DNA from: Candidatus Omnitrophota bacterium
GTDB taxonomy: Bacteria; Omnitrophota; Gorgyraeia; Gorgyraeales; Gorgyraeaceae
NCBI GenBank assembly: GCA_043814965.1
Contig: JBDRJN010000006.1
Location: 7,838 to 71,837, forward strand
Direction: 5' to 3'
Length of the DNA: 64,000 nucleotides
Shown: positions 6-57,396 of the stretch, piece after piece
How the letters are laid out: each line of letters begins with the position of its first letter
Position numbering within the stretch: the first letter of the stretch is position 1
The notes under the pieces: model-generated
Database searches by the model: none
The model's input: only the letters and a program-made list of their open reading frames with translations
Told to the model about the DNA's origin: nothing
Translations under genes and position numbers: made by a program

Positions 6-3000
6 GTGGAAAAATCAGACAGTTACTTTTCCATACTTGACGGCGGAGAAGAATATGATGATAAGGGAAGAATAACGCAAGATAATAAGATCATAAAATA
101 CGGAAACGGAAAGACGAAAAGTATAAACATAACGTATGTATATAATGGCAATAGCCAAAAAGCTGCCAGGATAATAGGAAATATGATCATCTCGCAGGAC
201 AAAGCAAAAAAGTCCATAGCCATAAGCGACAGGCCTCTGAGCGTAGCGTTCGGCAGAGACGGCAATATAGACTGGTCAACAGCGCGATATGTAGATAACG
301 ACGGCAATCTTACTGACGAAGCTCCTCCGACATCAATATCTGCTACCTTGTATAATAAGAAAGGCAAGCAGGATCTTCCCGAAGCCCCTGTCATAGGCGG
401 AAGCGTAGTTGTCCTGCCTGATAATCAGCGCGTTGTCAGTGAAGACAGCAGGGTATATGCGAATATTATTTCTTTTATCTCTGAAGCTGATAAGTGCAGG
501 GCCAATGATAGAGATAAGATCCTTCCTAATATCCACCAGATAATATCTACCAGGACCAATGTCCCAGCAGGAGAGAATACCTACACTACTACGATCACCT
601 ATACTATATATGACAATAAGGGCAATCCTCTGATAACCGGCAATAAGGATGCATGGAGCAATGCTTCGTGGGCCAGCGAATCAGACAATTATATATTTAA
701 TGGGGACGGGTATACGTATTATAGAAGCGCTTCTTTTATGAGTCCCGAAGATTTCTTAGCAGCCAATCCTGAAGCAACGAGTGGCCAGATAGAGGAAAAC
801 AGAGAAAAATGGGAGGCATTCAAGCAGTCTGAACACGAAGAAGTCTCTAATATGGACAATATAGGTGAAGTCATTATTAGAAAAGACGACCCAGGTAATT
901 TAATATATAGGAAGGTAGACCTTAAAGTGGGCAGTGATGCTGCTAAGTCTATCATACAGGAAGCAGGTAAGGCTGACCCTAAATTTGCAGATAATGTAAA
1001 AGGTGTATCTATCTATGTAGATGCGGAGAATAATATAACCTATCATATATCGGGTGAGAATGATGAGGTTATCGCAATGAGTGTAACGGAAAAGCAAGAA
1101 GATGAAAGCGTAAAGACAGGATGGAGTGACGGCAATAATACCTATATACTGAATGCTGAAAAACATGCTTATGAACTTACAAGGGTCAGTGTATATAACC
1201 CAGATCTACTGCCTAAAGGCGCGAATAAAAGCATAAAGAATTTTGCTGATAGTAACTGGGATAAGACACTCAGTACATTTAAATCTATCAATAAAGATGC
1301 TGCGCATGTCGACGCAGGCCAGATACAAAGGATCACGCTTGTAAAGGACGGAGAATCCTGGGTCGCCCAAGCTGACATCTCAGACGTTGACAACAAGATA
1401 CTGAATGGTTTAAACATAAAAGGCATAGAGTTGAATACGCAGAACATTGTGCGTGCTGTAATGTTTGTAAGTAAGGGCAGAGCAACATCCAATTTTATAG
1501 ATGCGGACGGAAGGATCCTCTATGTCGTGGAGCATAAAGGCGGTAAATATAATCTTATAAGAAGTGTATGTTATAATCCAGAGTTTGAAGGCATGTCAGA
1601 TAAAGCTACAGCTAGACAGAAAAAGGCTGCTCAGGAGAATTGGGATAATCTATTTACAGCTTATGTTGCCAAAAACCCGGGATTTGACGATGCCAAATCA
1701 GGTGACTTAACTGAGATAATGATAGTGAGGTCAGAGGATGGCGATTCATTTGACCTTATAGCAAGCCTGAAAGAAGGCAGTGATGGTTTTAATGCTTCTA
1801 TAGAGAAGTTTAAGAAAGTCGAGAGAATGTTCAGCGATGAGATCTCTGTACCTGATAAGCGCGAAATCAAGACTGTACAAATAAGAAAGACCCAAAAAGG
1901 CAAAAAGACAGATTATGCTTATATTTTCTTGGATGAAAAGGGCGATTTGATAGCAGCAGGCAATGAAAAATACTGGATGACCGCTGGCGCAGAGCATATA
2001 TATGAATACGATGAAACTGCTGAGAAAAAGTATAAACATATTGAGCAGGGTATCATGGATGAGAAGGATAAAGGGAAAAATCCTGAAAAGTGGAACGCCT
2101 TGGTGAATACTGCCATGAAATTCCTCCCAGAGCTCCAAGGCCATACAGCTAACGAGATAGAGCCGCAATTAAAAGAGATCAGATTTATCAGGATCAACGG
2201 AGAATTTTCTAGCTGCAGAGTGACTCTAAAGCAAGGCACTATAGCTGAGAAGATTATAAAGGGTTTTCCGTCTAACTTGACAGAAGGAAAGAAAAATAGC
2301 GTAAAATTCGTAGTCATTCATAGGACTTCGAAAGAAGGATCATTAGCTTATTACCTCTATAATAAGCTTGATAAAGCCCCTATAGGAGTCGAGAACCCTA
2401 ATAAGTGGATAGTAGGCAATAGATTTAACCTGAAAAATGGAAGCGAGGAACATAAAAAGCTAGTAGAGGCATCCAATAAGGATATAGATAATATAAACAA
2501 TTCCAACAAGAAGACGCCTTACGAAGTCTCTTTATCATCTTCCGGAGATAGAAATAAGACTATTCCTAACCTCAAGATAGATGAGGTTAGGATAGAGGGA
2601 GAGATTACAGCGGATAGCAGGGTGATCTATACAATTTATCATAATGATAGTAAGGTTATGGTTGGTTCTCCTGGAGGCCAGTGGAAGATAGGAGATGAGG
2701 CTTTTGTAAAGATAGGCCTATACCCTGAAGAATTCTTAAAGTCTAATCCTGACGCGACAGAAGATGAAATAATGCAAAACAAAACTAAAGGCGTAAAATG
2801 GCAGGATAGGGGCTTATATATAAAGAACTTAAAGGATGGAATAGGGCCGCAGATAAGCAATATGCTGGAAGCAGGCGCAATAGATGAGGAGCGTTTAAAC
2901 TCATTAGGGATCCAGATCAAGAAAGGTGATAAAGATAAGCTAATAGCAGTTAAGTATAAAGAAGGCAGTTGGATCTATCTTGACGATAATGCGTCTCAGT

Positions 3001-6000: not shown

Positions 6001-9000
6001 CAGGTAACAGGATGAAGGTTGACGCAAAGGCTGTAAGGGAGCTTATCAATATACATAAAGACGCTACATTAAATAGAGAGGTCGAGCTAAAGACAGGCAA
6101 AAAGATCGACAAGGTAACTGAGGCAGAAAAATTAGAAGCTTTAAATGATATAGCAAAAGACATTGAATCCGAAAATAGGGAAAATTCCCTGGAGCTCTGG
6201 CGTATGGATAAAAATGGCGGTTTAAGATCAATAGATATAAATAGACGCAGTGTTGATATGAGGAACAGGGGATGGACTGCTGAATATATCAATGGCATGG
6301 AGGTCATGGCCAGGAATACGAACTATTTATCTGATGTTGACTTTGCAAAAGAGATCACCATGGAATGGAAGAGCGAATATAATATCTCCAGGCTGGAAAG
6401 TTTCAATTTAAATGATATAGGAATAGCTATTGGAAAAGGCAAGAGTACAGTAGAACTATCTAATGGTGAAAAGATAGAGCTGTCCGCAGGGTTTAAAGAT
6501 GCAGTCAGGGAAAAGATCACTAATGAAAAATGTGAAAATGCATTATTGGAGAGTGTATATGGTAAAGAAAAAGCGCAGGAATTAATAAAAGACCCTTTAA
6601 AAAGAAGCAGCGCATTGCTTGAGCTGTCAAGTAAGAGCCCTGAACTTTTATTGGCAAGCGTAGATAGTGAAGGAAACGTAAAGACAGTGATAGAGTTGGG
6701 GACAATGAAAAAAGGTTTTAAGAAAAGCTACTATAATAATAGATATAGTGCTCTTAGAGAGACTAATTCACCAGCTTCTTTAGCCGGACTTCAAGGAAAA
6801 TCTGAAATAAGCATCTTTATAAAGAAAAGCGCTGTGGGTGAATTAAAGTTATTAAATGAAAGAGTGGCGGATCTAAAAGATAATGTAGGGTCAGCTCAGG
6901 AACAATTAAATACCAGCAGGCGAGCTGAAGCAGGTAACGGCGTGACCCGTACAGGCATAGAGCTTGAGATACAAGTAAGACAGGCAGAGCTTAATGTTGC
7001 AGAGAAGGCATTGGATGTTGCTAGATTAGAAAGGATGGCTTCAAACCGCAGTGAAAAATTGATTGAAGCCAGGAATGTATTTAATGATGCTGTAAGAAAT
7101 TTATCCAGTGCTAAGAATATACAGAGTAACTATGCACATAGGTTTTTAAAGAAATCTTTAAGAGGGGGGAAACCTTGGACTAAAGAGGGCAGGGCTAAAC
7201 GTAGGGAGACTAAACTTTTAGGCGAGGCAGAGGGAGCTCAATCGGCACAAGAAGGGATGGCAGAACTTAAAAAAGATACCTCAAAAAAAGAATTCGTAAA
7301 ATGGCTTAAGAAAGAAAATATCCTTGATCCAGAGTCAAGTCCGGGCGAGGGAATAATAAAAGCTGAAATAGAAAAATGGACTAAGAGGGCCAATGAAACA
7401 AAAAAGGTTTTGAAAGACCCAGAGGCTATAAAGCTCCTAGAGAAAGTAAAATCTGCCAATGCAGAGATCACTGAAAAGATGAAGGGGATAGAGTTCGATT
7501 CATTTAGAGAACCAGCCAAAGAGATAGAGAATCTAAAGGATCAAATAAAGAAACTGGAAAAATCCCCATCTAAGAATTCAAAAGAGCTATTGGCCAAAAA
7601 GAAAGAATTGGTGGAATCAAAACAGAAGGCATTAGACGATGCCATAGGTGTTAAGGTCGCAGAGCTCCATAAAAATATTTTAGAATATAAGAAAAGCAAG
7701 GGTAAAGACTTTTCTGCTGCTGATGCTTATGCATATGCGGATATCGTATTTACAAAACTTGCAGGGATAAATGCAAAAGGCAGTGCATACAGCTTATTCG
7801 GCAGTCAAAGGATGATGCTGGCTGAGTTTTTCGCTGGAAGAAATGCAGGGGTAAGGGCAGGCGGAGGAAAGACTATAACCTTTGTATTGGATCTGGGAGT
7901 GAACAAGCTTTTACTCGGTAAAGAGTTTCAGGGAGAACTTTTATTGGAGAATATAGGTGCAGCCAGAAAATATATATCAGAGACTTTTGGAGAAAATGGA
8001 GTGAACCATGGAAAATTAGCAAAGGCATTTGGTATAGAACTGGTCAATGGCGTGGAGTTATATAAGCAGGAAGGCGGGACAGCGAAATTAATAGAGGCCT
8101 ATAAAAATACCGAAAAAGTCGTACTGATGGAAGCAACTACGAGGGGCCATCTCATGAACCAGGCAGTTACAAATGTAGAGTTGAGGGTGGCTTTAGCCAG
8201 CTCTAATGTTATAAGAGCGGATGAAGTGCATATACAAGTTACTTCAAGGACAGCATCAATAATAGGTAATAATACAATAGGCCCTTCTTCCACGCAGGTG
8301 GATCGCATTGAGAGGCTTTGGAATGAGATTGAAAAAAGCGGCATAACTGAGTCAACCATAAGTCTATCTAAATTTGATAAGAGCGTAGGAGAGATGAATA
8401 ATAGCGGAGGAAAACTTCATTTTGCCAAACTTGGCAGTGAGATAAAAATAAATGAAGCTGCCCATAAATATTTTACTGAGCGTGGTTATAAGACAGGAGA
8501 GCTTCAATCAGTACTTAGGGCCAGGGTTGATGTTGAAGGAAGGTCAGGTTCATATGCAATAACCAAAGACGGAAAGATAGCTCCTGTCAGCCAGTACGGA
8601 GAGGTGGAAGTAAGCCAGATCATGAAAGACGTGAACTACCAGCTGGCGATTGCAAAGAAACATGGCTTGAACGCCTATACTTCTGTAAGGCAGAGTACGA
8701 CTAGCATGCAGACATCTCTATCATATATTTTTGGAAATAAATATGCAAGTATCTGCGGCGCTTCAGCTACAACATCCGGCATAGAGGCGCTTATGCATAG
8801 TAAGATAGGTTCTAAAACAACAGATATAAGCGTTACCAAACTGGACCTATCCTTGTATAATACTGCAAAGACAGGCACAGAAAATGTCTATGGCGATGTT
8901 AAGGCATCATGGAAGAAGTCACTTCAGGCAAAGACAGAGAATGCTTCAAGAAATCTGAAGAATGCTAAAGAAAGGTTAGAGAGCGCAGAAAAAGAACTAG

Positions 9001-12000
9001 AGGCCAATCCAAAAAATAGATCATTAGAGACTAAGATAGAGAACTGGAAGAGGAAGGTTAATGAATTAGAGCAGATGCAAGAAGGCGGAGGCATCTTGAT
9101 AGCTACGAGAGACGTGGCAGGAATAGATCAGGCAAAACTAAAGGAGATAGCCAAAGAGCTGGGCATAGAAGTTGATTTTGAGATCGTAGACGGTAAATTT
9201 GAGGGAGATATGGTAAATGTGACTTCATCTGCCGGTAAGCTCGGGAAGGTGACGATTGTAAATGAAAGAGGAATGACAGGATGTAATTATAAAGGTAGAA
9301 TTGATTTATTTGTAATAGGGGCAGAGAGCATGCCTTCCACTTTATTTGCACAGCTTACACACAGGACCGGGCGAGGCGGAGCGATCACAACGCGTCATTT
9401 ATACATTGAGAGTAAGGCTATAACAGATAACCTGTCTTATGCAAAGACTAAAGAGGCTGAACTGCGCAGTGAAAATATATGGGGCAAAGAAGAAACTAAT
9501 AGTTTCTTAGGGGAAATGGAACGGGGCTTTGATTTTAACTCTTCTAAGGGAGTCAAGGATGCGTTAAAGCGTAATGCTGATTTCTTAGAAGCAATAGAGG
9601 TATCTGAATCAGTGAAGTTCTCTGCGCAGGATATTGCCAGGAACAAATTTGTCATAGAACCTTTAAAGAGGCTCTTGGAAGATCCAAAGATACAGGGCAC
9701 ATCTGCAGAAAAGGTTATAAAGAGAAAATTAGAAGAGGCCTTGAACCAGTCATCTCCATATGCGGATATACTGTTGCAGAAATCTTCTATTCAGGGCAGA
9801 GAGGCCTATACTGAGAATACAGTTAGATCAAGTATAAGAGAAGCTTATGAAGTAATGAGAGATATAGAGGCTAGCGTATCAGGATATGCCAAGACAAAGG
9901 TAGCATCTAACCTTAGCCAAGTCGTTAAATTTTCTAAGCAGGCAAAGGACTTTAGCAGAGTAGAGGCAATAAGTGATAAATCGCTTATGGAGGCGAAGAA
10001 CTTAAAAGAGGTAGCAGCTATTATAAAAGGCCTGTCAGACAAGATATTATCGACTGAAGGAAAGGGCAGCAAGGCCCCTGAAGTAGTAGAGGTCAGAGAA
10101 GCAGAAAAGAGCGTTGAAAAAGCAGTATTAGAGTTAAATCCTAATGCAACTATTGATAGAACAAAACTCAATGAAGCAGCTGGCGCAGTAGCTGAGGTCA
10201 ATAAGACCAGAGGTTCACCATTTACAGCCATACCAGCCTATAGCTCATTCTACGCAACACAGGTAAATAGCTTTATGGCTGATGATACAAAGGAGAACAA
10301 AGTCTACGCAAAAGTGCAGGATATAGCAGCTCAGGTAAATACCCAAGCATACCAGAACTCCTCAGATCAACAAAAAGCCAATATACTCCTAAATATAGTA
10401 CAGGGTGTGAATGAAAAGACAGCAAACCTTGCCCTCGCATACGTGAACCCAGAACTCAATCTAAATACAGTACAAAACTACGCTGTAGAAACTATAGGAG
10501 AGATAACAGATGCTATCATAGATGCTTCACTTGAGAGTGATATTGTTACGCTATCAGGCGATGTGGTAGGCGCTGGCAATGGAATAGGAGTGATTCCCGG
10601 AGGAGTCAGCGGAACAGGCAGGCTCAAAGACCTTATAGGATTTGAAGTAGCTAGCATGGAAGCTGAATTATTACAAGGCAGGCTAGAGACCACTGAAGCT
10701 GAAATAGACGCAGCTTATAGCCAAGATGTTAATGATAAATTAGGTGAGATCATAGAACAGGCAGAGGCTACAAAAACCATGGAAATCGGGGATGCATTTG
10801 ATGAATATGAAGCAACTCTTGACATGGAGATCGTAAAGGGCCAGATCGCAATGGATCTGGAGAAGCAAGATAATAAAGAGCTAGCGTTGAAGAGAGAAGA
10901 CTTGGCCGCAGCCCAGATAGAGCAAGATGAAATATCAGCCCAGCAGGAGTTTGATACTGAAATAACCCAGTCTATGGATGCAGTGGAAGAGACAGTTACG
11001 CGTATAGAAGATATAAAGGCTGAAGAGACAAGGCAGGAGATAAGATCAAGACAAGAAGAAAAGGACCTTAATTCTATAAAGACGCTTATAACAGACGCTA
11101 CGAGTGAAAAAGATCATACTGTTGCGCAGGCAAGGCTCACATTTACAGAACAGGCTATAAAGGCAAGGCTTTCCTCAGGGGATATTTCAGATAATGCAAG
11201 GGCTCAGTTAAATGCGCAGCTAGTAGTTGTAGGTAGCGCAAAGGAAGAGATAGCTTCCCTACAAGCTGAAGAAGAAGCGGCTAAAAAAGAGGAAGTAAGG
11301 GGCATTACTAATATCCTAGGTAATGTAATAAATAATACTATAAATATCATAAATAGTTCAGTAAAGAGATCGCAGGAGGCAAAAAGCCGCGAGGAATATG
11401 TGAATACTTATTCACATATAATAGATGAGGTAGTAAAGCTTTCAAACGGAGGCGATACTAACAATGAGGCTACCTTAGCATTGTTTAATATAATATCAAA
11501 TGGTATCTCTGCTAGATTGGAAGACCTGTCTTTTACTCCTGAGCAGAGACAGGACTTAATGAACCTGGAATCAAAGGTCCAGCTTGCAACGCGATCTATC
11601 AATGAAAACGCCATTAGATGGCAAGGCGTAAGAGAAGAGACGCATGACAGGTTTATATCAGGCCTGCAGGATACTATAAGGAGCATATCTTCTTACAGGG
11701 ACTTTGTGCTCGCTCAGCCTATAATAATGGCCACAAGAAATGCTATCAATATAAGAATTGCATCAAGCGATATCCCTGGAACTGAGAAGAGCCAGCTCAA
11801 TAATTACCTGGTGCTTTTGGATAGCCTGGAATCCCAGATGACCACAGAAGAAAAACTGAGGCAGATCAAGGTTAGAGAGCACAATGAATTTGCAGGGAAT
11901 ATGAAGGGCCTGATAAATCAAGCCTCTACAGCTTTTGCAAAGGGAGAAGAGGCTGTAGGCAATGCAATGTTCACAATGGCGCGCCAGAGCATCAACACAA

Positions 12001-15000
12001 GGCTTTCTTCTCCTACTCTTTCAAATTCAAGCGAACAAAGGGCTGAATTAAGAGGCCTCCTGAGCTTGACAGGCGGCGTACAGGAAGAGATAGAGATAGA
12101 AGAAACCGTTGTTCGAGCTGAAGAAACCGCCACAGCTCAAGATATATTTACACAAAATAAAGTAGTAGTGTTCAATAAAAATACCAATGAGTTTTCTACA
12201 GAGAGAGTGATCAAATTAAGCTCACTTCCAATGCCTGAAATAAGAGAGGCTTTTGCTCAAGCATTGTGGAATCTAGCTAAAAACGCGCCTTCTCATAAAA
12301 TGACATTAGCGAATTATGCGAGTTTCATCACAGGAGACAGGTTAGGCAATAAAGATATATATGCAGTAATAGATGATAAAAACAATGCATTGGCTATTCA
12401 GATAGTTGACTTTGATCCCAGCGATAAGACACAAGTTAGTTTATCTACCTGGATCAGCGCAGATAATATAAGTTTTGCAGGGAATCAGGTGCTTTCCTAT
12501 GCTGTAAACGACCTTTTGGATAAAGGAGTGGCTCAACTTGATTCAAAAGGCGTTTCATATACATCCAGGGTTAGAAATGCATTGCCTTCTGGTATAAACA
12601 ATGTCTCAGAGATGAGGAATCTTGTAAATGAAAACGCAGTAAATTTAGTAACTTCTTTGACAGGCGCAAGCATTAATAATCCTTCAGCAGGCTTAGTATT
12701 GCAGGAAATCACAGGTGTAAGACCTGATGTGTCTACAGAGACAGCTGTATTGGACGATGTAATTGAAAGCGTAGAGGTAAAGATAGAAGATACCTCAGTA
12801 GTAGTGGCAAGTAATGATGCCCTGGAAAATATCATAGATGAATTGGGCTATTCTGCATCAGCTGATGCGATTGTAACAGTACTCACTCCTTATATAAATA
12901 AAGGTACATTTACAGAGAATTTCTTTAAGAATGCCATAACTAACCTCATGCAGCCGATGGATTCAACAGGTATTAACTATACAAACTTAAATGTAGACGA
13001 AAGGGCTGTAATAGCAGGAGTTTTGCCTAGGATCACTTATCAGGATGTAGACGCGGATGGATATATAAATATAACAGTAAAAAGCATTGGCATTGGAGGG
13101 GGGCAAGAGCTTTTCCAAACAGCTGAGTTACTGGTAAACCACCTGGAAGGCCTTGGGATCGGAGAATCAGTCAAAGGAGGCAAGATCAAGATAAGGATCA
13201 GCCTTAATGGATTTGATTATAATCTCCAAGAGATCTCGGGCGCAAAGGAGAATATAGATCAGTTTATCAGCGGACTTCCAGATGTTTGGAAAAGCTCGAT
13301 TGAAACCCATTATACATATATAGATATAAATGACCCATCGACCTATGATGTCATGCTCGATGGCAAGTCAGATCTCTTATTTAATAAGAATACATGGCAT
13401 GCTAGTAACTATAACTGGGATTCTTATAGAGCAAGTAATTTCATAGATCTATTAGAAAGCAATGTTAAAGATGGCGGGTTCGTAAGTATGACCAATCCAT
13501 ATAAACCAGGTACTCCTTTATATGGTTCATTCAGTGATATAGCAGCTCCTTTTAATAGAAGGGCTACAGACTTTAGTTCTCCTTTGACATCGATCTTAAT
13601 GCCTGAAAGGACAGCTACCAGCCTAGAACAGCAAGATATAGAAGTTGCCAGCATGGAGGTTGAACTCGCAGAGTCAAAACAAGATGATATAGACAAAGCC
13701 TGGGATGAAAATACGAGTTATGAGGTTGTAGCAAGTAATATGGGCATGGTAAATAAGGATGAAAAAACTAGCCAAGAAAATGCAGTTTGGGAGCAAAAAG
13801 AAGCGCAATTTAAACTAACAGTTGATCTCGAAACAGCTAAGATGGAAACTGAAGAATTCAACGCCCAGGAAGAAATGGACATAGATAGGCTGGAAAGAGA
13901 TCATGCATCTAGCGCCAGAGAAGAAGAAATCACAGTAGAAGAGTATTTACAAGGGTTACAGAGTGAATTAGATGAAGAAAGAGCCCAATTGGACTATGAA
14001 GAGACATTGGCTCTACAGGATGAAGATTCAAAAGCTGGTGTACAGGAGATCATATCAGCAATAGCAGAGGATATCATAGCACACGACACAGAAGCAGCAT
14101 TAAAAAGAGAACAAGAAGATATAGCAAAGGCAAGGAGAGGTAAGGGAACAGCCAAGAGATCTTCCAAAGGCAAAAAGACATCCGAAGAAGGCGCTGAAGA
14201 GGTAATAGAAAAGACCGAGTACGCGGCTCTTGAAGCTACAGCGCCTCAATCTGATAAAGGCGGAGAGCCTCCTGTCGTAGGCGGAGAGGGCAAAGTAGAT
14301 TCTCAAGAAAAGCCGTCATCTCGTTTTCTGGCTGTAGGCGGAGAATATGCCAAGAATTACAGGCAAGCTGTAAATAATATACCTAACAGTAAATTGAGAA
14401 AAGCAGTGCAGTCAGGCATACAGATGGTATCTTACCATGCTAATAGCCCAATATATAAAGAACAATCTACTGATAAAGAAAGGGCAGTTACTTTGTCAGA
14501 GGCATTGGATGAGATACTTAATGAGCACTATGGAGTTACTGATCTTGAACGCCAAGATGCCGAAGATCGCATATTGAAATACATAAACCCGGAGCTGGGA
14601 TCCAAGGATCTGGAAAATACCATAGGCGAGATCTTTGCAGAAGAGAAAGTAAACACTGAAAAAAGCATCAAAGGCGCCCTAAAGGCATTGAATTCTACCA
14701 AGGTTATAGATAAAAAGAAACTAGAGGCTGCTTCTCAGGCAGTGTTAGAAGCTAATATAACAGGAAATTATATCGCAGGAGTAGAATATTTAGAGCTTTA
14801 CCAAGAATACATAGATTCTATAGAAAATAATGATCTATTAAAAGAGATAGTCAACCAAGGCGCTAGTAACCTTATATATCAAGTAGCAAATTCAAACTAT
14901 GGAGCATTGGATGACCAGGAAAAAAGGATCGTAATAATAGGCGCGGTAGATGAAGTGCTTAATCAATACGAAAACCCGCTACCGACTTTTGTTACTGTAG

Positions 15001-42000: not shown

Positions 42001-45000
42001 ATGAGATCAATCTTGCAGAGTCGCAGGTAATAGAGAGGATAAATTCACTACTTGATGATGACGGACAACTTAGGATCACTGAAGGTGAAAAAGAAAGAGT
42101 GTTTATTAAGTCAGCTGAATATAGAAAGAGATCGAAGGAGATAGAGAACAAGGAGAGCATTTTAGAAGAAGATGCTATGAAGAAATTGGAAGAAGAGGGG
42201 ATATTTGAGATAAATCCGAATTTCAGGCTATTTGCTACTATGAACCCAACTGAGTATGCTGGAAGAAATATGCTTTCGCCTGCTCTTATGAACAGGTTCC
42301 GCGTGAAATGGATAGATGATCTATATACTAATGAGAAACAGGCGATCTTGAACTTAACATATGGCGATAAATATAATAACCCTGGGCTTAGCCAGAGACA
42401 TATAGAATATCTCACTCTCTTACATGAGGGCTTGCAGGCGCTTAGCGCATCAAGAAAACTCGGAGAAGAAGAAAGAGACCCTTATTACTATAGCCTAAGG
42501 GACTTAAGGAAGGTCTGTGACAGGGCATTGAAGAGGATGAAAAGCGAAAGTAAACCAGGCGAAGAAGTATCCGATAAATTAATAAATAATATTTTATACC
42601 AGGAATTCTTGGAGGTTTATGGCGACAGGACAAGAGATGAGCATGACTATGAAATATTAAAGGATATTGTATTAGGTACGAGGTTTGCTGGTGCGTTAGA
42701 AGATAATAAGTTTGACATAGTAGATAATAAAAAGACAACTTCATTTGGTGGTATAGAGATTGATAGATGGGACAAAGGTGGAAAATACATTCCTAGTAAT
42801 GAGGCAAAGCTTATAGAAAGCAAAACCACCAATAGGTACCTTAAAAAACTTGCTAAGAGCGTTTATATGAATGAAAAGACGCTTTTGGTAGGCCCTACAG
42901 GAAGCGCCAAGACGTCTTTAGTGAGGGGTTTAGCGTATCTTACAGGGAATAATTTTATGAGGATGAATCTTGATGCGCAGACTGATACAGGGGAGATAAT
43001 AGGGCATTTTATCCCAGAGGAAGGTTCTAAAGATAGATTCAAGTGGGTAGACGGAGACCTTGTTACTGCAATGAAAGAAGGCTATTGGGTGCTCTTTGAT
43101 GAGTTAAATCTTGCTGAGCCTGAGATACTAGAGAGGATAAATTCACTTCTCGATGAAGATGGTTCTTTAGTTATCACTGAAAACGAAGGAGAAAAATATA
43201 TACCTAGCGAACAATTCCAAAAACTAAGAGAGGAATATATCAGTAAGGGCCTTATAGATAATAATAACGAAAAGAATGTAATAGTTGTAACTAACGATAA
43301 AGGCGAGACAATAGAGAAGATATACGAAATACACCCTAATTTCCGATTGTTCTGCGCTATGAACCCAGAAAAATATTCTGGCAGGAACAGGCTCTCTATC
43401 GCAATGCGCAATAAATTGACAGAGATATGGGTACCTGGCCTTACTGATAAGGAAGAGATAAAGCATATAGTAAAAGGCTTTTTAGGGATCCCTGAAGGTG
43501 TGTCCAAGGATGTTATCGCAAGCCAGATGGTGTTCCTAAATGGTGAATTAAATAACCTAAAAGAAGAAGATCCCGAAGGTATATTAGAGGAGTATGAATT
43601 TACTATACGCGATCTAAAGGCATGGAGTGGGTATATAAATGAGTTCCAAGGTAAATTGGGCCTGGAAAACGCTTTTATAAAAGGCGCAAGGTATATATAT
43701 TATGACAGGTTCAAAACCGACAGCGAAAGAAAAGATTTTATAGAACTTATAAGAAAAGCTGTATCTAGGGAACCTCAAGAATATATAAATGAAGTCTTTA
43801 ATGCGAAGAGTAGTGAAGACCTCAAGGAACTTACTCCTGACGAAAACAATAAACTGCATGTATTGGGCGTTACTCTTGATATCAATAGAGAAGGAGGAGA
43901 GTATGTACCTGATATAGATAGATCAAAGCTCGTAATAACAGATGAGACTCTAAAAAATCTTGAAAAAGCAGCAGAATCTGTAAAGCTAAATGATAATCTA
44001 TTATTAGAAGGAGAGACGGGCGCAGGAAAGACTTCTTTAATAAGGTATCTTGCATCTATAACTAATAATAACTTTAGCAGGTTCAATCTTAGCGGCCAGA
44101 CAGAAAAGACAGATTTTATAGGAGGTTTCAAGCCTAAGGATGGTACTTTCGAATGGCAGGATGGCATACTCATAAGGGCATTAAAAGAAGGCCATTGGCT
44201 TGTCTTGGATGAGATAAATCTTGCATCATCACAGGTAATAGAGAGGATAAATTCCCTATTAGATGATGATGGTTTTATAGTAGTTACGGAGAATAAAGGC
44301 GAGAAATATATAAAGAGTGAACAATATCAAGCACTTAAGAAGCAATATACGGATGGCGGATTAAGCGAAGGAGAGGCAAAGGAAAGGCTTAATAATGTAG
44401 ACAGGATATTCGAGATAAACCTCAATTTCAGATTATTTGCCACTATGAACCCAGTAACATATGCCGGAAGAAAGAGATTTTCAAAAGCGCTTCTAAATAG
44501 ATTTAGGGTAAAGTGGATAGATGAGCTCCCAAGAGAAGACCTTAAAGAGATATTAGTTGAAAAATATAACCATACTAATATATCCAGTAAGCCTATAGAT
44601 AAGGCGCTGGATTTTTATTACAGCGCCAAGACCGCGGCAGATAAATACCCTCAGCTAAAATTGTGTTTTACAATAAGACATGTCTTAAGATGGTTCGATA
44701 GGATTAACTCTTATACCGGAAAAGATGTCGATAGTATGTTTGCTCTAGAGGCAGGGGAAGTATTTCTGGATGGTTTAGGAGAAGAGATTTCGGAACAAGA
44801 GATAAAAAGAGAGCTTGTAGAAAATATAAGAAATATCTTTGGCAGTCTGTACGAAGACAATGATATAGATATAGACAAACAAAAAGATACTATTAGCTTT
44901 GGAGAGATAAAGATAGCTGAGAAAAAAGGTAAGAGAGAACAATATATAGATAGAGAGCCTTTGTATGAGACAGATTCTACAAAAACGCTTTTAAAAAAGC

Positions 45001-48000
45001 TAGCAAAATGTGTAAATCAGAAAGAGCCGGTTCTTATGAAAGGCCTTACCGGAGGAGGAAAGACCTCTTTACCGAAATATTTATCTGATCTCACAAATAA
45101 TGATTTTGTTACACTGGACTTGGATGGCCAGACTGATACTGCGCAACTTATAGGGCAATATATCCCTGATGAAAATACAAAAACTGGTTACAGGTGGCAG
45201 GATGGGCTTCTTATAAGGGCAATGGAAAATGGCTGGTGGATACTCTTGGATGAGATAAACCTTGCTGAGGCGGATATATTGGAGAGGATAAACTCGCTCT
45301 TAGACGATGATGGGTATATAGTCCTGACTGAAGACAACAATAGGAAGGTAAAATGTCATCCTGATTTCAGGCTTTTTGCTGCCATGAACCCAGAGACCTA
45401 CGCAGGAAGGGCGAATCTTTCAATAGCGATGCTCAATAAATTTCACCAGATATGGGTTCCAAGGGATTTTACAGAAAAAGAAGATATAGAATTAGTCGGT
45501 CATTACTTAGAGACATATACAGCAATAGATAAGATGTCTTCCAGCGTACAGCATATAGAGTATAGAACTATGATAGAGAAAATGCCTTTTGATGTTATGT
45601 ATAGCGTGGCTGATCCATTAGGATTGATATATATAGGTATTAAATCGTTAAAGTCACTGATATCAAGTAAAAGGCATGGGCTTGATCTAAGTGTAAAATA
45701 TTATAATGAAAAAGGAGAAGAGATCACCGAGGACCTAAATAGAAAAGAAAAAAGAAACCTTAAAAAATTCAATCGCAGGCTTAAAGATATAGGTGTAGTA
45801 GCAAGTTATTTTGGAGGGGATTTTGAGGTAGATATACGCCCAGGGAAAAGATGGGCTATAGGATATCCTAAGGATCCGAATGAAAAACCAGTAATAACAT
45901 TCCCTAAGAATGAGCTTCTGGAAAAAGATAAGGATGTTGTGATAGGCAGTGCTTTACATGAAGCAGGACACAGAGACATATCGTGGATGGATAGTTTCTT
46001 TACCGAAAAAGAATCAAGAAGGTTTTTACTTAATGCAGTCGAGGACCCTCGCGTAAATGAATGGACTACTCTAAAGACAGAAGGGACAAGGAAATTTACA
46101 GAAGCTACATACATAGACGCATACCCAAAAGAGGCTAAGAAGAGTTTTGATGAACGAGGTATTATGCCTCACATACAGTTTGGCCTTGGGCTTATACATT
46201 ATTGGTATTATGGCGAAGAACACCCTGCGATAAAAAATACTAAAGTGTTAAAAGCTCTCCAGGATACAAGAGTGGATGCTGTAAAGGCATATAATATACA
46301 CGCAGGCACTATTACTATAACAAGGGATAAAGATATAAAGGATGGATTTATATTATATTCGCCTACATATGGTGAGCAGAAAATAGACTTGAAACTTGGT
46401 GATAGGCGCGCCTTGAGGATGAAAGACGCAGGGATGGTAGAGAGAACAGGCAAAGAAGAAATAACGTTTTATACAGGAGACGGAGAGATCCCAGTCATTT
46501 TTAAAGAAGAAGATTTCAGCAAGAAGAGCCTTTTAAATATGCGCCCGAGCGCAAAGGATAAGGAAATAGCAGCGATTGAATCAGCAAGGATCATAAAAGA
46601 AAAGATATTGCCTGTATATGAGACACTTGTAAAAGAGTCTGTAGATAATAAAAAAGAGGAGTTGAAAAAAGATAGCCTTAGCGAAGATATACAAAGCCAG
46701 GCCGAAAAGGAAGTAGAAGAAGAATCAAAGAAAGCAGCTGATGCATTAGGCCCAAAGATCTCAGAAGATGATCTAGAGGCCTCGGAGGATAAAAAGACAA
46801 AAGCTAAAGAAGACAGACAGCCAACGCCTGAAGCTAAAGAAAAATCACAGCCAATGTCAGTTGACAGCAAGAATGCGGAAGATGAAGACAAGAGAGATGG
46901 CAGTGATATAAAGGAAAGCGCTGAAGACGTAAAAGATGAACCAGGCGAACGTGAAGAATCCGACAGTGATAAGGAAAATAGGGGAGGCCAGGTTGATGCA
47001 GAGAGCTTCTTTAAAGATATGGTAAGAAAGTTTGAAACAGAAGTACCACAAACTACATATGACAATTACTATAGAGGCATAAGCAGGATCATAGAAAAGC
47101 TCTTTGGTATCCTAGATAATGAGCTCCATAAAGATACAAAATTTAGATATAAAGGCTATTTTGCAACAGGACCTAAGCCTGATATGAGAAAAGCAATGAC
47201 AATGAAAGAGACGGGAGATATGGATATATGGCTTAAACGTGTCAAGGCTATACAAAGAAGTTTTAAATTTAGCTTGGTTCTAGATGAAAGCGGATCTATG
47301 GGGCGCGGAGACAAGACAAACCCTGCTGTACAGGCCATGATAATATTTATGGAGGTTCTCTCCAGGTTGAACATAGATTTTTCTATAATAGGCTTTAGCG
47401 ACTCGCCTTCTATTCACATGAACTTTGGTGAAAGCTTCAAGCATAGTAAGAATAAAGTAGTAAAAGAAGTTATCAGATACATGGGTAAAGGCGGGACGAA
47501 TGACGCAAAGGCAGTAGAAAAGGCAACTGCCTTATTAGATAGGGAGATAAGTGATACAAAGATCATGATAGTGGTCAGTGACGGCTATGGAAATAGGGAG
47601 CTATTACGCAAGAATTTATTAAAGGCATATAAAAAAGGCATAGATGTAATAGGTCTAGGCATAGGATCTGGCATGGATTATGTTAAGGAGGTCTATGACT
47701 GCGCAAAGGTCATAGGGGACTTGAATGATCTGCCCAGGATAGTAGCCCAGGTGCTTATAGACATAATCGTAAAAGGAAAACACGTAAGGCGCAGTAATAG
47801 AGACAACGAGGTAGACATCTCTGGGGAAGTAACTAAGATAAATAAAACACAATCTGACGTCCCGGATAGCTTGACGCAATTAAACTCCATACCTATATAT
47901 CAATATATCGGTGCAGGCATAAAAGCGCTGAAGGCAGGCAGGAAACATCTAAAAGATATTAAGAAAGAGAGAGAACTCAAGAAAAAAGAGGAAGAAGAGA

Positions 48001-51000
48001 TCGCAGAACGCATGGAATTATCCAAGCCGACAGAGGAATATAAACCGACAATACATTCAGCCGGAGATCTAGCGATCCATGGAATAGACAATATGTCGTT
48101 AGAGATAGAACAGGGTAAAAACGCATATCTATACGGGACAATAAATCTTAATGTTGCAGCCAAGAATGTTACTGAGGCCTCAAAGGTAGTGCAGGATATA
48201 AAAGCCGGTTTGTTCACAGTTACTAAAAAAGATAAATTAAAATTAAAAGATATATTTGAAAAAATAGAAATAGTCAATGCATGGGATGAATCCGGCAAGG
48301 AGATCTTTGATGCTGGCAAAGAAGAAGAAGGCCAGGTCGGCACACTTTTAGGAGCAAGGTCTTTACGCTATAGGATAAAAGTTCCATGCGAAGAAACAGG
48401 CGAGTTCAAATATGCTTTAGGGTTTACATTCGATCCAAAGCTCAATGGAAAAAGCTGGAGTTATGTAAGAGATAATATTGGCATAAGTTCCTTTGCAGTA
48501 ATAAATGTGATAGATAAGACCCAAGCTTTTGAAAACAAGATCTTAAATGTACTTAGCGGGATATCCTTTAGCAGTTTAGAAGAGTTGATGGATAGGTTTG
48601 ATAACCCAGAGGAGAAAAAGAATATCTATGCCGCACTTAACAACCTATACAGCAAAAAGGCTATCAGTGTCATCTATGATAATATCGACCAGAAAGAGCT
48701 CCGTTATAGTTCGACTTCTTCCCTGGAAGAAGGCTTAAAGAACGGATCAATAATAGAGGCCAAGTCAGGCACAAAGATAAGGTTTTTTACAAAAGACGCG
48801 ATAGAAAAATCCGGCAAAAACTTAGTAAGGTATAAAGAAGGGTTATTTGATGTCCTGGATAAAGCTACGCTGCAATCCAAGCTTGATAAAAATGAGATAA
48901 GGCCTGTTTATACCAAAGAAGGCACCCTGTTTTATGAGAGAGAGTTAGTGCACAGTATGATAAAAGAGGAAAAGATCATACTCAGTAATTTCATTAACTC
49001 CGGACAATTTTTTATATTGGCAAAAGACAAAGATGATTATTTAAGAAAAGAGTTAAATAACTGTAAGAGTATATTTGAAGAGAACTTTAAGGACGCATCA
49101 AAGAACATACATGAGGCCTATGGATCAGCCCGCGAGATCTTTAATACTCCACAAAGGATAAATAGCTTAAAGAGGGCAGTGGAGATGGCTGTAAGCTTAA
49201 AGAAATGGAACGCTGATGACTATACTATCGCAGCTGCATTTTTGGAGAACATAGACCTTGAGAATAAAGATCATATAAAAAGGATAAAACAATTTGACAA
49301 AAGGTCAAAGGTCTTGAATATCCTTAAGAATTTCAGGAATGTATCCAACCTTCCGCATATACTAGAGCTGAATCTGGAGAACCATCTTGATATCCAGTAT
49401 AAGATGGACATGATCATAAAGACCTCGAGGACCCCGGAGGTAATGCTGCTTACATGGGCTGATATATTGAACAGGGTGAAGTCCGAGGAAAGAAAAGAAA
49501 ACTTTAAATATATTGCTCAAGCAGCAAGGACGCTTTACGGCCCCTTAGCAGATAGATTAGGCAGGGAAGATGTTGCCAAGGAGATCTGGCATACTATCTT
49601 TGAAAAGCAAGACCCGGAATTATGCAAGAAGGTGACAGAGGCAATGGAAAAAAGAATAGGCATGACCCTTAGCGAAGGAGAAGTGTTTTTGCATGAAGCA
49701 AAACTCAAGATAGAGAAGTATTTAAGAGACAATGATCTTAAGGCAAAGGTATACATAAGGGTCAAGTCACCTGTCTCTATGTTCGACAGGGCAAGAAAAG
49801 GACAGACAAAATATTCTACAGAAGAGGTCTTGCGCATTATCGAGACATCAAAAATGCTCAGGGATACATTAGGTATCATGGTGGTATTTGATGAGGAAGA
49901 ATACAAGATACACCAATCAGTATATTATATCGCAGCTGAGATAGCCAACATAGAAGAGGCATCGAAGTTCAGGAGAGAGGCGCTTTATGTCGACTATCCA
50001 AGGTATAGTTTCTACATAAAAGCAGAGAATGGCGCAGATATGAGCTTTATGGCTAAAGACAAAGATACCTATAAGACATATAGAGTAGGAGAATCTGCGC
50101 ACTGGCATTTTAAATTAAAAGACAGGATACTGGAAGGAAAGAAGCAGAGTTTTGAGTATTGGCCGGATGGCCTGGAATATGCAGGAGATTTTGAAAAAGA
50201 TTTTAATGCTCTAGTAATCGAACTGGATAAATATAGTTATGTGTATTATGCAGAACCTTCAAAGCAGTACACCTATCCCAAGATCATAAAACTTCCCTCA
50301 GGTTCTATTGCTGTAGACCTTGCGAGTGAAATGGGTGTATTGAACAGTGATTTTTCAGGAGTCACAGTAAAGAACCTTAAACATGACTATAATTATGGCA
50401 AAGAAATGGGAGGAACTATAAGATCAAGCCATCAACCATATGGCATTGACTATCTATTAAAGGATGGAGATATAGTCACTCCGTATAGCAGCAGAGAAGG
50501 ATTTCCTGAAAATAAAAGACTAGCCTTGACAGAAGCAATGAATAGATCGAAAAATCAGGCTGCCAGGGATTTTATAAAAGGGAAATTAAATATGTCCAAT
50601 CTAAGGATAGCTCAATGGGGAAAAGAGAGCTATCCTATACTGAATAAGATATGGCGTAGTATACTTATGGTGACAGGAGTTACACCTATACATGAACTTG
50701 GCCATATTTACGGAGCTCTTTTACAAGATGATGATAAAGTCATAAATAGCACTAAGACAATAGAAGAGTTTGAGATAAATACCAAAGGAGTATTCTTTGA
50801 AGGGAGGCTTAAGGGCCTGAAAGGGTCTTCTTTACTGTTAGGGGCTGCAGCAAATCTGATAGCTGTACCATTGGTAATATTTTCAAGTTTAGGAGCTGGA
50901 TTTGATAGTGTGTTGACGTATGTAGCGGGACTTCATATTATAGCTGGCCTTGTAGAAGTATTTTCCAGTAAGGGTGATGTAAGAAAGTTTTTTGGAGAAA

Positions 51001-54000
51001 GGCCGCTAAAAAGCATCATAGAGGATATACGTAACGGCTTGAGATCCATAAAAGACGATATATTTAAAGATAAATATAATATAAATAATGATCCTATAGA
51101 GCTTACTACACGAAAGAACTTTGAGGAGATCACCGAGAGATTCGAAGGCATAATAAAACACGGCAAGGTCTCTTCATCTGAGAAATTGCGGGATAAGATA
51201 ATACTTCTTACTATCAAGACGCCTCCTTTAAGGAATATGGCAGTATGGACGCTTAATAATATAAGTTCACGTCCAGCGCTGAGAGAAAGGCTTTCATTTA
51301 TACTTCCCATGCTGAAGTGGCTTCAGTCAAAATTTATAATCCCTGTATCAAGTAACCTTGAAGAGGCGACATATGAAGCAGAAAAAGTGATCCTTGATAA
51401 TAGGAAGAATGGCATTGGCCTTACACTTGACAGCGTCGGAGATGCTGTGCATTCAGAGGAAGAAGCAAAGCTGCATGTCGATCATTATCTCAGCATGATA
51501 AGGAATCTCGGGCCTAAAGCAAAGGACTGGGAGAAAAATGAATCTCTCGACAATGTAGAAAGGCTTCATTTTTCAGTAAAGCTTAGCGCTATTGTATATG
51601 ACGCGTGGAAAAAGAAAGGAAGAGGGTTCGCTAATAAATCAAAGATAAAAGAGACACTTAAGACACTTATAAGAGAAGCTAGCATTTACAATGCCTTTAT
51701 CCGCATTGACCTTGAAGAATACGGATACCGCGATACTACCATGGATATCTATAAGGAAGTCATTGAAGATCTTGCCAAGGAGGATGAGAATACCGTGGTA
51801 AGTGATGACAGGGGCACATTGAGGGTAGGGGTCGTAGTGCAGGCATATCTAAAAGATTCAGGAAAAGTCTTAAATGACTTATTGAACTGGGGAGAGACGT
51901 ATCATTATCGCGTGCCAATAAGGCTAGTAAAAGGCGCGTATGACGACAAGGAAAAGAAATGGGCAAGAGGCGAGTATAAAGAGGGCGAAGATGTATTTAA
52001 TGGAGGCAGGCCCTACCCAAGCCCTGTATTCAGGGAAAAGGAATCCACAGACGCTCATTATGAACTATTGAGTGAATATCTTATCATGAATAATGATAGG
52101 TTCCAGACAGCTATTGCATCGCACAATATCCGCTCTATATCACACGCAATGAGCCTTGCTGAAAATTATGAAGTTGATAAAAAGGATATTGAAATACAGA
52201 TGCTTTATGGCATGGGAGACCCTGTGAAATATGCTATCAGAGATCTAGGTTATCGTATTCGCGCGTATGCTCCTATAGGCTCATTTATAGAAGGTATGAA
52301 ATACTCGGGCCGACGCCTTAAAGAGCTTGCGAATAAGAGCAATGCGCTTACTAAGACCATGGCATGTGATTATAGATTCTTGAGAAGATTGAAAAAGGCC
52401 CCTAAATTCCAGTATGGCGACAGCCCTATTTATGTAGCAGAGGAATTTGTGGGAACACTTGAAGGGAGAAAAGAGGAGCTGCGCCTTAATAAAGCAAGAA
52501 GATGGTATGAGATATTCCCGTATAGTTTTATTATTGAGCATCCGTCTATCTTAGTATCGTGGCTCAATCATATACCTAACGCGGTCTTATATGGTTTTAT
52601 AAAACAGTTATTCCAGCCTTTTAATTATAAGTCCAGGGAGTTGGTGGATGAGTTGAGGCACAGCCTAAGACAAGAAAGGACATACAGCGCATTTATACTG
52701 TTGGATAAGATAAAAAAGATCACAAATAGAAGGTCACTTAAGTACTTATTGAATATTCTGTTCGATAAAACCATAAACAGCGAAAAGTATGAAGAAGTAA
52801 TATTAGAGATCAGAGACCATATCCAGCATATAAGGCATAAGCTTTATGCGTATAATGTAAAAAAAGATGCAAAGAACATGAAATACGATGAATACGACGA
52901 TATAAAGAAAGATTATCCATTTTTCTTTGATGATAATCAAGGCACATACCAGCATTTACGAAAGATAGCAAGCTATAAAGTGAGAAAATATAGAAGCATG
53001 AAAGGCAGTATAAATATATGGATCCCCGGGGGAGTGTCATTCTTTGAAGACGGGCCCAAGATACCATCTGCGTATATGGCAGCTATAATATTCCTGGAAG
53101 AAGCAAGGAAACAGGGATTAAAAGGCGAAGAGTTGGAGGAATTTAAAAAGGACCTTAATATTACTGTTACAGATGGCAATAAAGACGCGCTTTTACATGG
53201 CGAGATAGGGTCTTTTAATATCAATGCATTTATAAAAGAAAGCAGGCCTCTTACAAAAGAGGATAAAGAGATAGTCGAGAGATATTTTGATATCACAAAA
53301 GCTAGCGGGAGGTTAAAGGTAAAGCAAGATATAAGAGATATAATAAAATGCAAGAATGAACTATCTGTAAATTATATAAGGCCAGGGTTTTTTGATATTA
53401 TCATAGATCAGTTCGTTGAAACCAAGATAGAGATGCGCAATGAAGGGGACCGCTGGCCGATCCTAAATAACATACGTGTCGGAAACTTCATAGAAAGCCT
53501 TAAAATAGACGGAGATATCATCACTACGGGGGACAAGGGTTTTGAAGATAGTTCTTTTTTAAGAGGATATTCCAGTAAACTTCCTGTAAGCAGTTATTTC
53601 GGGGGAGAGAAATTGGAAGGATTTGCAAGGGTATACCAGAAGACATCACCTGCGTTTTACGATAACTGGCGGGACTTTGCTGCTGAGATCAATATGTTTA
53701 AAATTATTAAAAAGGATGGGATTAAATTAATGGATATCAGCCGGAAGATATTGGATACAGCATATGACTTGGCAGAGTTTGTTCATGGAGGACAGATAAG
53801 GACCAATAATAAAGAACCATATATGGAACATCTTGTAAGGACCACTATGATGCTCAGGGATGTATTCAATGTATTGGATAGATTCAAGGTCTCAGAACAT
53901 ACAAAAGTAGACCTATCAGGGTTATCCAATGATGAGATAAGACAGATAGATGACCTGTCAAGCGAGATAATATCTTCGATCGCGCTATTACATGATTCAG

Positions 54001-57370: not shown

Positions 57371-57396
57371 CGGGTTACGGGTTACGGGGTACGGGT
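57371..57396 (+). repeat. G-tract repeat 'CGGGTTACGGGTTACGGGGTACGGGT' (G3N4G3N4G4N3G3: canonical G-quadruplex-forming pattern) filling the whole SBP-permease intergenic gap
   Basis: Read directly; 69% GC in an otherwise AT-rich context, abutting the ATG at 57397. Confidence 0.8.

Follow-up and report, generated by a model that had tools for sequence, protein, structure and literature searches.

A probable Omnitrophota giant gene with a midasin-like AAA+ ring, a putative glucan-synthase-like module and a divergent 3′ end at a conserved locus

The 64,000-nucleotide stretch of DNA analysed here (contig JBDRJN010000006.1 of assembly GCA_043814965.1; hereafter the window) is dominated by the 3′ part of one giant open reading frame (ORF), which occupies nucleotides 3-55,586 of the + strand and comprises at least 18,527 codons and a stop, its 5′ end lying beyond the window. 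All features described below are on the + strand, and amino acids (aa) are numbered from the left edge of the window, such that a nucleotide coordinate is three times the residue number. Read from left to right, the visible protein consists of a long 'dark' region, a putative β-glucan synthase-like module, a block of HEAT repeats, six tandem AAA+ modules with an acidic stretch and a VWA domain behind them, and a tail with three further enzyme domains; the gene is followed by a PilZ-domain gene, a sugar importer and genes for hydrolase-like proteins. We consider it very likely that these 55.6 kb are the 3′ part of a genuine, single Omnitrophota giant gene of the 'multi-enzyme / Archaeovorin-like' class at a conserved locus. 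What the present analysis adds to the published picture of such genes is a midasin-like and apparently membrane-anchored ring, a hidden glucan-synthase-like module, and total divergence of the 3′ end at a syntenic locus.

The existence of one uninterrupted giant reading frame of 55.6 kb, which had been proposed in an initial annotation of the window made from its sequence, is confirmed. Frame +3 contains no stop from nucleotide 3 to nucleotide 55,583 and is closed by a stop codon at 55,584-55,586, giving 18,527 sense codons (the ORF listing gives 6..55586, having counted from the first GTG). At 39% G+C, base composition predicts a stop about every 13 codons, and the probability of an 18,527-codon run arising by chance is therefore about 1e-625; in both of the remaining sense frames, stops number about 100 in every 3 kb. 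The order of G+C content at the three codon positions (GC1>GC3>GC2) and a purine content of about 70% at codon position 1 hold in all 19 of the 3-kb bins into which the gene was divided. Relative synonymous codon usage (RSCU) correlates at 0.90-0.97 among four parts of the gene and at 0.90-0.92 between these and the seven downstream genes, against 0.70 for a frame-shifted control. By self-comparison the giant protein is non-repetitive except in its HEAT and AAA regions, and two tiny tandem repeats are the only ones within the gene. Several candidate explanations for so long a frame were rejected. Stop-codon reassignment is rejected because TAA and TGA end the neighbouring genes, all three stop codons being absent within the ORF itself. 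A collapsed repeat array is made very unlikely by the lack of nucleotide repeats that could collapse, and embedded RNA genes are rejected from Rfam and tRNA scans, which found no family and no tRNA. An antisense gene is rejected as well: the longest antisense ORF has 214 codons, and the long antisense ORFs all lie in the usual shadow frame, in line with the earlier view that nothing credible is encoded on that strand. The frame runs off the left edge of the window, and the complete protein must therefore exceed 18,527 aa, as had also been anticipated.

The products of six of the seven downstream ORFs are identical to NCBI entries from 'MAG: Candidatus Omnitrophota bacterium' (MAG, metagenome-assembled genome; locus tags around ABIG92_02560-02590), which are encoded on a contig of 152,804 bp in a genome that is not a GTDB species representative. 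The AAA+ ring, too, finds its nearest relatives in Omnitrophota MAGs, with identities of 35-46%; for the ring segment, the genome and metagenome collections yielded nothing closer than 46%. The order of genes 3′ of the giant (pilZ, ABC importer, GH2) is that of the published Omnitrophota giant locus: the same downstream arrangement has been described for Omnitrophota giants (West-Roberts 2023, section 11), as have GH2 flanks (Nielsen & Lui 2026). Giants have been defined as single ORFs of >20 kb (Seymour 2023) or as proteins from 10,000 aa upwards (Nielsen & Lui 2026), and the set of West-Roberts 2023 comprised 46 giants of >90 kb; with at least 55.6 kb and at least 18,527 aa the window gene lies above the >20-kb and 10,000-aa limits. 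Giants are routine in Omnitrophota, in which the reported proteins of 10,000 aa or more number 5,761, the longest of 147,155 aa, and in which they occur in 94% of complete genomes. The gene is therefore of a known kind and its size is mid-range. The headline claim of the initial annotation, a bacterial giant gene comparable to those of Omnitrophota, is thus right, given the matching MAG proteins and the published locus, but it is not new, since this type of gene is already known in the phylum. Its further suggestion that the protein would rank among the largest of prokaryotes is overstated, such sizes being ordinary within the phylum. The combination that it described, of motor ATPases with membrane segments, interaction repeats and metabolic enzymes, is indeed present, in the form of AAA+ modules, transmembrane (TM)-like runs, HEAT repeats, and HD, proline dehydrogenase and GNAT domains. 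Catalytic motifs had, however, been placed from about 7.8 kb onwards, and this could not be upheld: Pfam and NCBIfam find none before nucleotide ~31.7 kb, and there is no Walker A motif upstream of residue 12,773.

The six tandem AAA+ modules, which belong to the dynein/midasin/MoxR class, span residues ~12,700-15,300 (nucleotides 38,100-45,902; AAA_5, E 1e-83 and 6e-105) and are preceded by a midasin-type AAA lid at residues 12,578-12,672 (37,734-38,018; MDN1_4th and AAA_lid_7). Walker A (GxxGxxKTS, at residues 12773, 13141, 13933, 14297, 14670 and 15014) and Walker B (hhhhDE, at residues 12839, 13205, 13996, 14362, 14732 and 15079) are intact in all six. Motif spacing, hydropathy and a low-confidence model delimit an all-helical insertion of about 400 aa between modules 2 and 3 (residues ~13,500-13,900; 40,500-41,702). 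It contains two TM-like runs within residues 13,624-13,666 and is read here as a putative membrane hairpin. Behind the ring come an acidic stretch with 36% D/E (residues 15,555-15,669; 46,665-47,009) and a VWA domain (residues 15,758-15,890; 47,274-47,672; E 2e-13) whose metal ion-dependent adhesion site (MIDAS) motif, DESGS, is at residue 15,761. Among solved structures in the PDB, midasin/Rea1 is the best sequence match of the ring (E ~1e-150), and in the database ranking Omnitrophota fragments at 38-43% identity are followed by eukaryotic midasins at 24-30%. A structural prediction of modules 2-3 reached a predicted local distance difference test score (pLDDT) of 75-90 in the AAA cores, and Foldseek matched it to dynein motors and to Rea1/Mdn1 rings; single modeled modules matched CbbQ and NorQ with template-modelling scores of 0.86-0.88.

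Genomes and metagenomes together supplied 18 bacterial loci with this block, in which the order from the end of the HEAT region to the VWA domain is kept at 39-43% identity, and the 11-kb HEAT-ring-VWA stretch of the window is colinear with independent assemblies from other species. The relatives retain six Walker B motifs, a conserved L[VI]xDESGSM motif and TM-like runs in the same insertion, the latter at the same place in loci L002-L004, L009 and L013-L016. In 17 of the 18 cases the ORF around the block runs on without a stop to the 5′ limit of the locus, for 10 kb or more upstream wherever the contig is long enough. Five of the relative ORFs end 60-500 aa past the VWA domain, whereas the window gene runs on for 2,600 further residues, and the G+C content of the ring-bearing relatives ranges from 38 to 60%. 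In a neighbour-joining tree the modules form one bacterial clade and cluster by position across species; by this clustering the six-fold ring predates those species. Two side observations concern the same relatives. In L006 and L018 the six modules cluster with each other by parity, unlike the positional clustering seen in other species, which points to a ring that was duplicated anew, or homogenised, independently in some lineages. Furthermore, the ring-bearing MAGs L002/L012, L004, L008 and L009/L017 are labelled 'uncultured Planctomycetia' or 'Planctomycetales', and either the block occurs in Planctomycetota too or these are Omnitrophota bins under other naming.

A divergent FKS1/BcsA-like processive β-glucan synthase module is predicted at residues ~8,580-9,140 (25,740-27,422) on the basis of its homologues and of a family profile. 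An exhaustive phmmer search with residues 8,001-9,200 yielded 25 homologues, all aligned to residues ~8,580-8,990, of which a 582-aa fragment is the closest, with 48% identity. The remaining homologues are 21-28% identical and in most cases form part of long proteins, the largest of 5,368 aa. In homologues the very stretch that aligns is assigned by Pfam to Glucan_synthase (GT48) and Glyco_trans_2_3. Invariant in the alignment are D69 (within FFFDLD in the window) and the pair E162-D163 (within MED in the window), and the core is followed by TM-like runs at residues 8836, 8943, 9097 and 9117. The family profile covers the catalytic and TM core and matches FKS1/GSC2 at E 2e-21 and BcsA at E 5e-17. 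Conserved segments lie on both sides of the module. Upstream, residues 8,295-8,436 (24,885-25,310) match P0121, with an independent E-value (iE) of 2e-36, and P0145; downstream, residues 9,637-9,853 (28,911-29,561) match the C-terminal part of P0123 (iE 2e-20), a 2,179-aa protein with glucan-synthase, B12-binding and radical-SAM domains.

The N-terminal 'dark' region extends from residue 1 to residue ~8,290 (3-24,884) and is coding and non-repetitive, with no domain recognisable from Pfam, NCBIfam or the PDB. Pfam and NCBIfam returned nothing in residues 1-10,580, even when these were searched as 1000-aa pieces at E<=1, and a PDB sequence search with residues 1-9,800 gave no match; PADLOC found nothing in the dark region, nor did a metagenome scan with peptides taken from it. 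A word-indexed homologue search with residues 1-3000 was blank too, which is weak evidence: the same search was blank for the 2,587-aa tail of the protein (residues 15,941-18,527) despite its proline dehydrogenase domain (Pfam E 4e-64), and it is therefore insensitive with long queries. Single-sequence AlphaFold2 prediction of residues 5001-5900 was uninformative (pLDDT 34). The hydropathy scan marks isolated TM-like hydrophobic runs in this region at residues 1646, 5073, 6749, 7132, 7655 and 7720.

HEAT repeats with an internal duplication fill residues ~10,580-12,400 (31,740-37,202; HEAT_2 E 3.5e-74, HEAT_PBS and HEAT_EZ). Self-similarity extends over residues 11,000-12,400, and the PDB matches of the region are alphaRep/HEAT structures. 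Hydropathy picks out a TM-like helix at residues 11,751-11,769 (35,253-35,309; RTDLFLKWLGIAVIAGAVLTVLTAA), in the first copy of a HEAT-plus-TM unit, and another at residues 12,503-12,521 (37,509-37,565), in the second copy and just before the AAA+ ring. The two helices are near-identical (RT[DN][LI]FLKWLGIAVIAGA[VI]LTVLTAA), lie 752 aa apart and each close a HEAT block, as if a HEAT-plus-anchor unit just upstream of the ring had recently been duplicated within the gene.

Beyond the VWA domain lie an HD_4 phosphohydrolase domain of the RelA/SpoT-type HD family (residues 16,382-16,520; 49,146-49,562; E 6e-7, 29.7 bits against a cut-off of 27.2), a pair of TM-like runs recognised by hydropathy (residues 16,945-16,987; 50,835-50,963), a proline dehydrogenase domain (residues 17,127-17,447; 51,381-52,343; Pro_dh E 4e-64) and a GNAT acetyltransferase domain (residues 18,233-18,320; 54,699-54,962; Acetyltransf_1 E 4e-5, 24.4 bits against a cut-off of 20.7). 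The proline dehydrogenase is full length, matching model positions 2-274 of 278 with 217 bits against a cut-off of 27, and it matches the PutA structure 5ur2 at E 5e-43; no pyrroline-5-carboxylate (P5C) dehydrogenase domain follows it. Counted by hydropathy only, the visible protein has about 15-21 TM-like runs, in keeping with published figures of ~22 helices for each protein of 10,000 aa or more.

Downstream of the giant, a PilZ-domain gene with a strong Shine-Dalgarno sequence, AAGGAGG (55,667-56,002; MFH1478641.1), is followed by the genes of a sugar ATP-binding cassette (ABC) importer, namely a solute-binding protein and two permeases (56,045-59,214; permeases MFH1478643.1 and MFH1478644.1), and by genes for a TPR-containing GH2-like hydrolase (MFH1478645.1), a 225-aa protein (MFH1478646.1) and a GH72/GH42-like protein (MFH1478647.1), which together occupy 59,265-63,662 and are syntenic in loci L089-L097. 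In the sister lineages the order is giant, PilZ, solute-binding protein, two permeases, GH2, unknown protein and GH72-like, with an extra major facilitator superfamily (MFS) gene after the solute-binding protein in L097. The permease falls into a 90%-identity cluster with other assemblies, and the permeases of four further lineages are ~84% identical to it. In these four lineages the other six downstream proteins are 50-88% identical to those of the window, PilZ being the lowest among the flanking genes (50%), and at the nucleotide level the seven downstream genes share 66-74% identity with the sister lineages. Giant ORFs at this locus recur in at least five lineages. The giant of L089 is complete at 41,888 aa (GCA_964415355.1, CAYPYS010000001.1, about 243,700-369,400), and over its last 2,675 aa five independent assemblies agree at 100% identity without a stop; the other sister giants measure 28,837, 29,192, 15,237 and 10,277 aa, all of them lower bounds, being cut by contig ends.

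Nucleotide similarity to the sister lineages starts directly past the giant's stop, at position 55,592 of the window (55,586/55,592 against 8,030/8,151 in L089, and likewise for L095-L097). The last 2,200-2,700 aa of the sister giants show no detectable similarity to any of the 18,527 aa encoded in the window, and they are mutually dissimilar too, except for one 530-aa block. The L089 giant ends with PIG-L and ISN1 domains, the window giant with VWA, HD, Pro_dh and GNAT domains. From these comparisons the 3′ end of the giant gene appears completely turned over at a conserved locus, which matches the published singleton rate of 80% among Omnitrophota giants and carries it to orthologous sites. 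Unrelated 3′ ends beside flanks of 50-88% identity point to rapid modular turnover at a fixed locus.

Two unrelated observations were made among the downstream genes. The heptamer (T/G)TACGGG forms arrays of ~4 and ~5 copies at 57,368-57,396 and 59,273-59,309, the first between the stop of the solute-binding-protein gene and the start of the permease gene and the second at the start annotated for the GH2-like gene or immediately behind it. These are the only G-quadruplex (G4)-type motifs in the 64 kb and are not present in the syntenic relatives; the two-unit pattern TTACGGGTTACGGG, with at most 2 mismatches, has 7 matches where 0.07 were expected. The arrays could be slippage-prone or G4 regulatory elements. 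The second observation is a perfect 19-bp inverted repeat with a 3-nt loop (GATGGGATTTTGGCATGGG TCA CCCATGCCAAAATCCCATC) at 62,385-62,425, in the 70-nt gap between the gene for the 225-aa protein and the GH72-like gene, which could be a terminator or a protein-binding palindrome.

A number of points weigh against our reading of the window as part of a genuine giant gene with the modules described. The gene is known here from assembled sequence alone, and neither protein look-ups nor the metagenome scan turned up a second, independent assembly of it. No SecA_DEAD or SecA family domain was detected by Pfam or NCBIfam in the visible 18,527 aa, and SecA_DEAD is reported in most full-length giants (West-Roberts 2023); the missing N-terminal part could hold one. 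The synthase segment of the window, taken alone, falls below the Pfam thresholds and has GKY at the position of the BcsA QxxRW motif. The insertion hairpin was modelled with low confidence, the topology comes from a crude hydropathy scan rather than a trained predictor, and what Omnitrophota giant proteins do is itself a matter of hypothesis in published work. That the exact sequence was found in one assembly only would also fit an artefact, in which the frame is a chimeric in-frame join or a collapsed pseudogene array, as would the lack of any counterpart of the giant's 3′ end at the orthologous locus of the sister lineages. Such an artefact is nevertheless very unlikely in view of the negligible chance of a stop-free run of 18,527 codons, the uniformity of codon usage and position-specific composition and their match to the flanking genes, the absence of nucleotide repeats to collapse, the colinearity of the 11-kb HEAT-ring-VWA stretch in independent assemblies of other species, and the giants found at the same locus in at least five lineages, one of them 100% identical across five assemblies. 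We attach just as little credence to a classical giant of another kind, such as a repetitive adhesin/RTX protein, a nonribosomal peptide synthetase or polyketide synthase (NRPS/PKS) megasynthase or a polymorphic toxin. Its size would suit, and a variable C-terminus at a conserved locus recalls the C-terminal displacement of Rhs/CdiA, but no Ig, cadherin, RTX, Rhs, condensation, adenylation, ketosynthase or toxin domain and no PADLOC match was found, the protein is non-repetitive outside HEAT and AAA, and the gene next to it is the conserved PilZ gene rather than a small immunity-like gene. A polyprotein deserves more weight, although we do not favour it. Here one chain would be cleaved into separate membrane and soluble proteins and the 'giant protein' would be a precursor, which would suit functionally unrelated modules split by long unannotated linkers and paired TM-like runs, as well as C-terminal modules that differ wholesale between sister lineages, as for loosely coupled cargo. 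C39/S8 peptidase domains do occur near the N-termini of full-length giants, and cleavage has been raised as a possibility (West-Roberts 2023); on the other hand, no peptidase domain was detected in the visible 18,527 aa, and published V. archaeovorus proteomics does not resolve processing.

The origin of the ring calls for separate consideration within the giant gene that we favour. All six modules best-match midasin AAA3 or AAA5. When hidden Markov models (HMMs) were cross-scored against 64 midasins, AAA2/AAA4 preferred the even bacterial modules and AAA3/AAA5 the odd ones, and the double-centred diagonal stood at +2 to +10 bits for modules 2-5, but module 1 (M1) paired with AAA6 and M6 with AAA1. 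A ring shifted by one module relative to midasin, considered on the basis of P-loop signatures, found no support in this cross-scoring. Sequence searches recovered neither the N-terminal domain of midasin nor its ~1,700-aa linker, nor any specific similarity to its MIDAS domain, and the protein is on that account probably not a midasin orthologue; a PDB sequence search with the spacer behind the ring and the VWA region gave no match either. According to the prevailing view (Zhang & Aravind 2012, citing Iyer 2004), tandem arrays of six such modules first appeared at an early stage in the history of eukaryotes. The ring and VWA domain might be imagined as a fragment of a eukaryotic midasin acquired horizontally. 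Once Omnitrophota sequences are set aside, no PDB or database match comes close to midasin, midasin-specific lid families match, and modules 2-5 alternate odd/even in register with AAA2-AAA5. Even so, we regard such a transfer as improbable: the modules are 36-54% identical to each other, in groups M1/3/5 and M2/4/6, against ~30% to any midasin module, and form one neighbour-joining clade; the three midasin regions named above have no match at the sequence level; the Walker motifs are intact in all six modules; and only the bacterial proteins have the inserted TM hairpin. A bolder reading, which we hold to be less likely than not, is that the ring-acidic-VWA block of a subset of Omnitrophota giants is a prokaryotic, membrane-anchored single-chain ring that shares a multi-module ancestor with midasin, as opposed to an independent MoxR-like fusion. 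If true, shared ancestry would place a dynein/midasin-type fused ring in bacteria, as a force-generating motor inside the giants.

How such a protein might work can be sketched as follows. The polypeptide would be a multi-pass inner-membrane megaprotein that crosses the membrane ~15-20 times. Its ATP-, FAD- and acetyl-CoA-dependent parts (ring, VWA, HD, proline dehydrogenase and GNAT) would be cytoplasmic; the ring and the tail enzymes would share this face because the hydrophobic runs that interrupt them are paired (13,624/13,648 and 16,945/16,969). The HEAT block between the helices at residues 11,751 and 12,503 would face outward, as described for the HEAT repeats of giants (West-Roberts 2023). 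Plausibly, by analogy, the ring works like midasin or like a fused MoxR-VWA pair: ATP hydrolysis would pull on a ligand held at the MIDAS metal site and so remodel or assemble a partner, perhaps other parts of the megaprotein or envelope complexes, much as midasin removes assembly factors and as NorQ-NorD and CbbQ-CbbO remodel enzymes. The synthase-like module may extrude a β-glucan-type polymer, PilZ may couple the system to cyclic di-GMP (c-di-GMP), and the importer and hydrolases may take up released sugars. Such a system would fit the published surface 'coat' model, which envisages attachment to, and feeding on, host or prey cells.

The ring-acidic-VWA block is of interest in its own right. 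It measures ~3,400 aa, is conserved in giant ORFs besides this one (~17 of them) and contains six ATPase sites that appear to be active, which makes it a tractable handle, and its conservation bears on the origin of fused dynein/midasin-type rings. A putative synthase hidden in the 'dark' region suggests that giants may make surface glycan besides degrading host glycans. Together with the divergence of the 3′ end, these two modules could give experimentalists handles on giants whose function is guessed.

Comparison with known systems begins with the giants themselves. With the giants of the Archaeovorin type (West-Roberts 2023, bioRxiv 10.1101/2023.11.21.568195) and of the 'multi-enzyme metabolic cluster' class (Nielsen & Lui 2026, bioRxiv 10.64898/2026.06.07.730766), and with the 39,678-aa protein of V. 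archaeovorus LiM, the window gene shares the phylum and an ORF of tens of kb; with the Archaeovorin type it also shares HEAT repeats, a putative glycosyltransferase, assorted enzymes and many TM-like segments. Dockerin and TSP3 repeats, which mark the Dockerin type of West-Roberts 2023, had no match in the visible protein. As in published giants, HEAT is the commonest domain, AAA_5 is frequent, the N-terminal part is long and domain-free, HD and GNAT enzymes are scattered, there is little sequence conservation between genomes, and pilZ, a solute-binding protein, ABC permeases and GH2 hydrolases lie downstream. Unlike them, the visible part has no methyltransferase, NUDIX, GT1/GT5 or peptidase domain. 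Published giants are also described with a locus akin to type II / type IV secretion ahead of the gene and with a signal peptide or C39/S8 peptidase at the N-terminus, parts that in this gene would lie beyond the left edge of the window. The accounts of Omnitrophota giants compared here list AAA_5 only in a top-20 table and do not mention midasin or dynein, and neither six tandem AAA_5 modules with an acidic stretch and a MIDAS-type VWA domain nor an FKS-like synthase is described in them. Like FKS1/GSC2 (GT48) and BcsA (GT2), the putative synthase module has D and ED motifs, TM runs after them and an FNP-like motif at the end. It differs from BcsA in having GKY in place of QxxRW, as in the 'TKI' of FKS, and from both in being very divergent and embedded in a giant polypeptide.

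The ring has two kinds of counterpart. Midasin (MDN1/Rea1) likewise has six AAA+ modules in one chain with AAA_5, AAA_lid_7 and MDN1_4th matches, an acidic stretch and then a VWA domain with a DxSxS MIDAS motif, and an alternation of odd and even modules. The window ring differs in being bacterial, in lying within a protein of >18,500 aa and in being, by prediction, hairpin-anchored between modules 2 and 3. Where midasin has a linker of ~1,700 aa, only ~250 aa separate the end of the ring (~residue 15,300) from the acidic stretch, which is itself ~115 aa long, and where midasin ends with its MIDAS domain, the window protein continues for 2,600 aa past the VWA domain. Walker A and B are intact in six of six modules, and the modules are closer to each other than to those of midasin, which also sets the window ring apart. 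The MoxR-VWA pairs (NorQ-NorD, CbbQ-CbbO and RavA-ViaA) resemble it in AAA+ fold class, in the coupling of a ring to a VWA/MIDAS partner and in acting at or on membrane complexes. Whereas these are homohexamers with a separate partner, the window has one chain in which six diverged modules and the VWA domain are fused, and in sequence its ring is far closer to midasin (E ~1e-150) than to the MoxR class (E ~1e-12).

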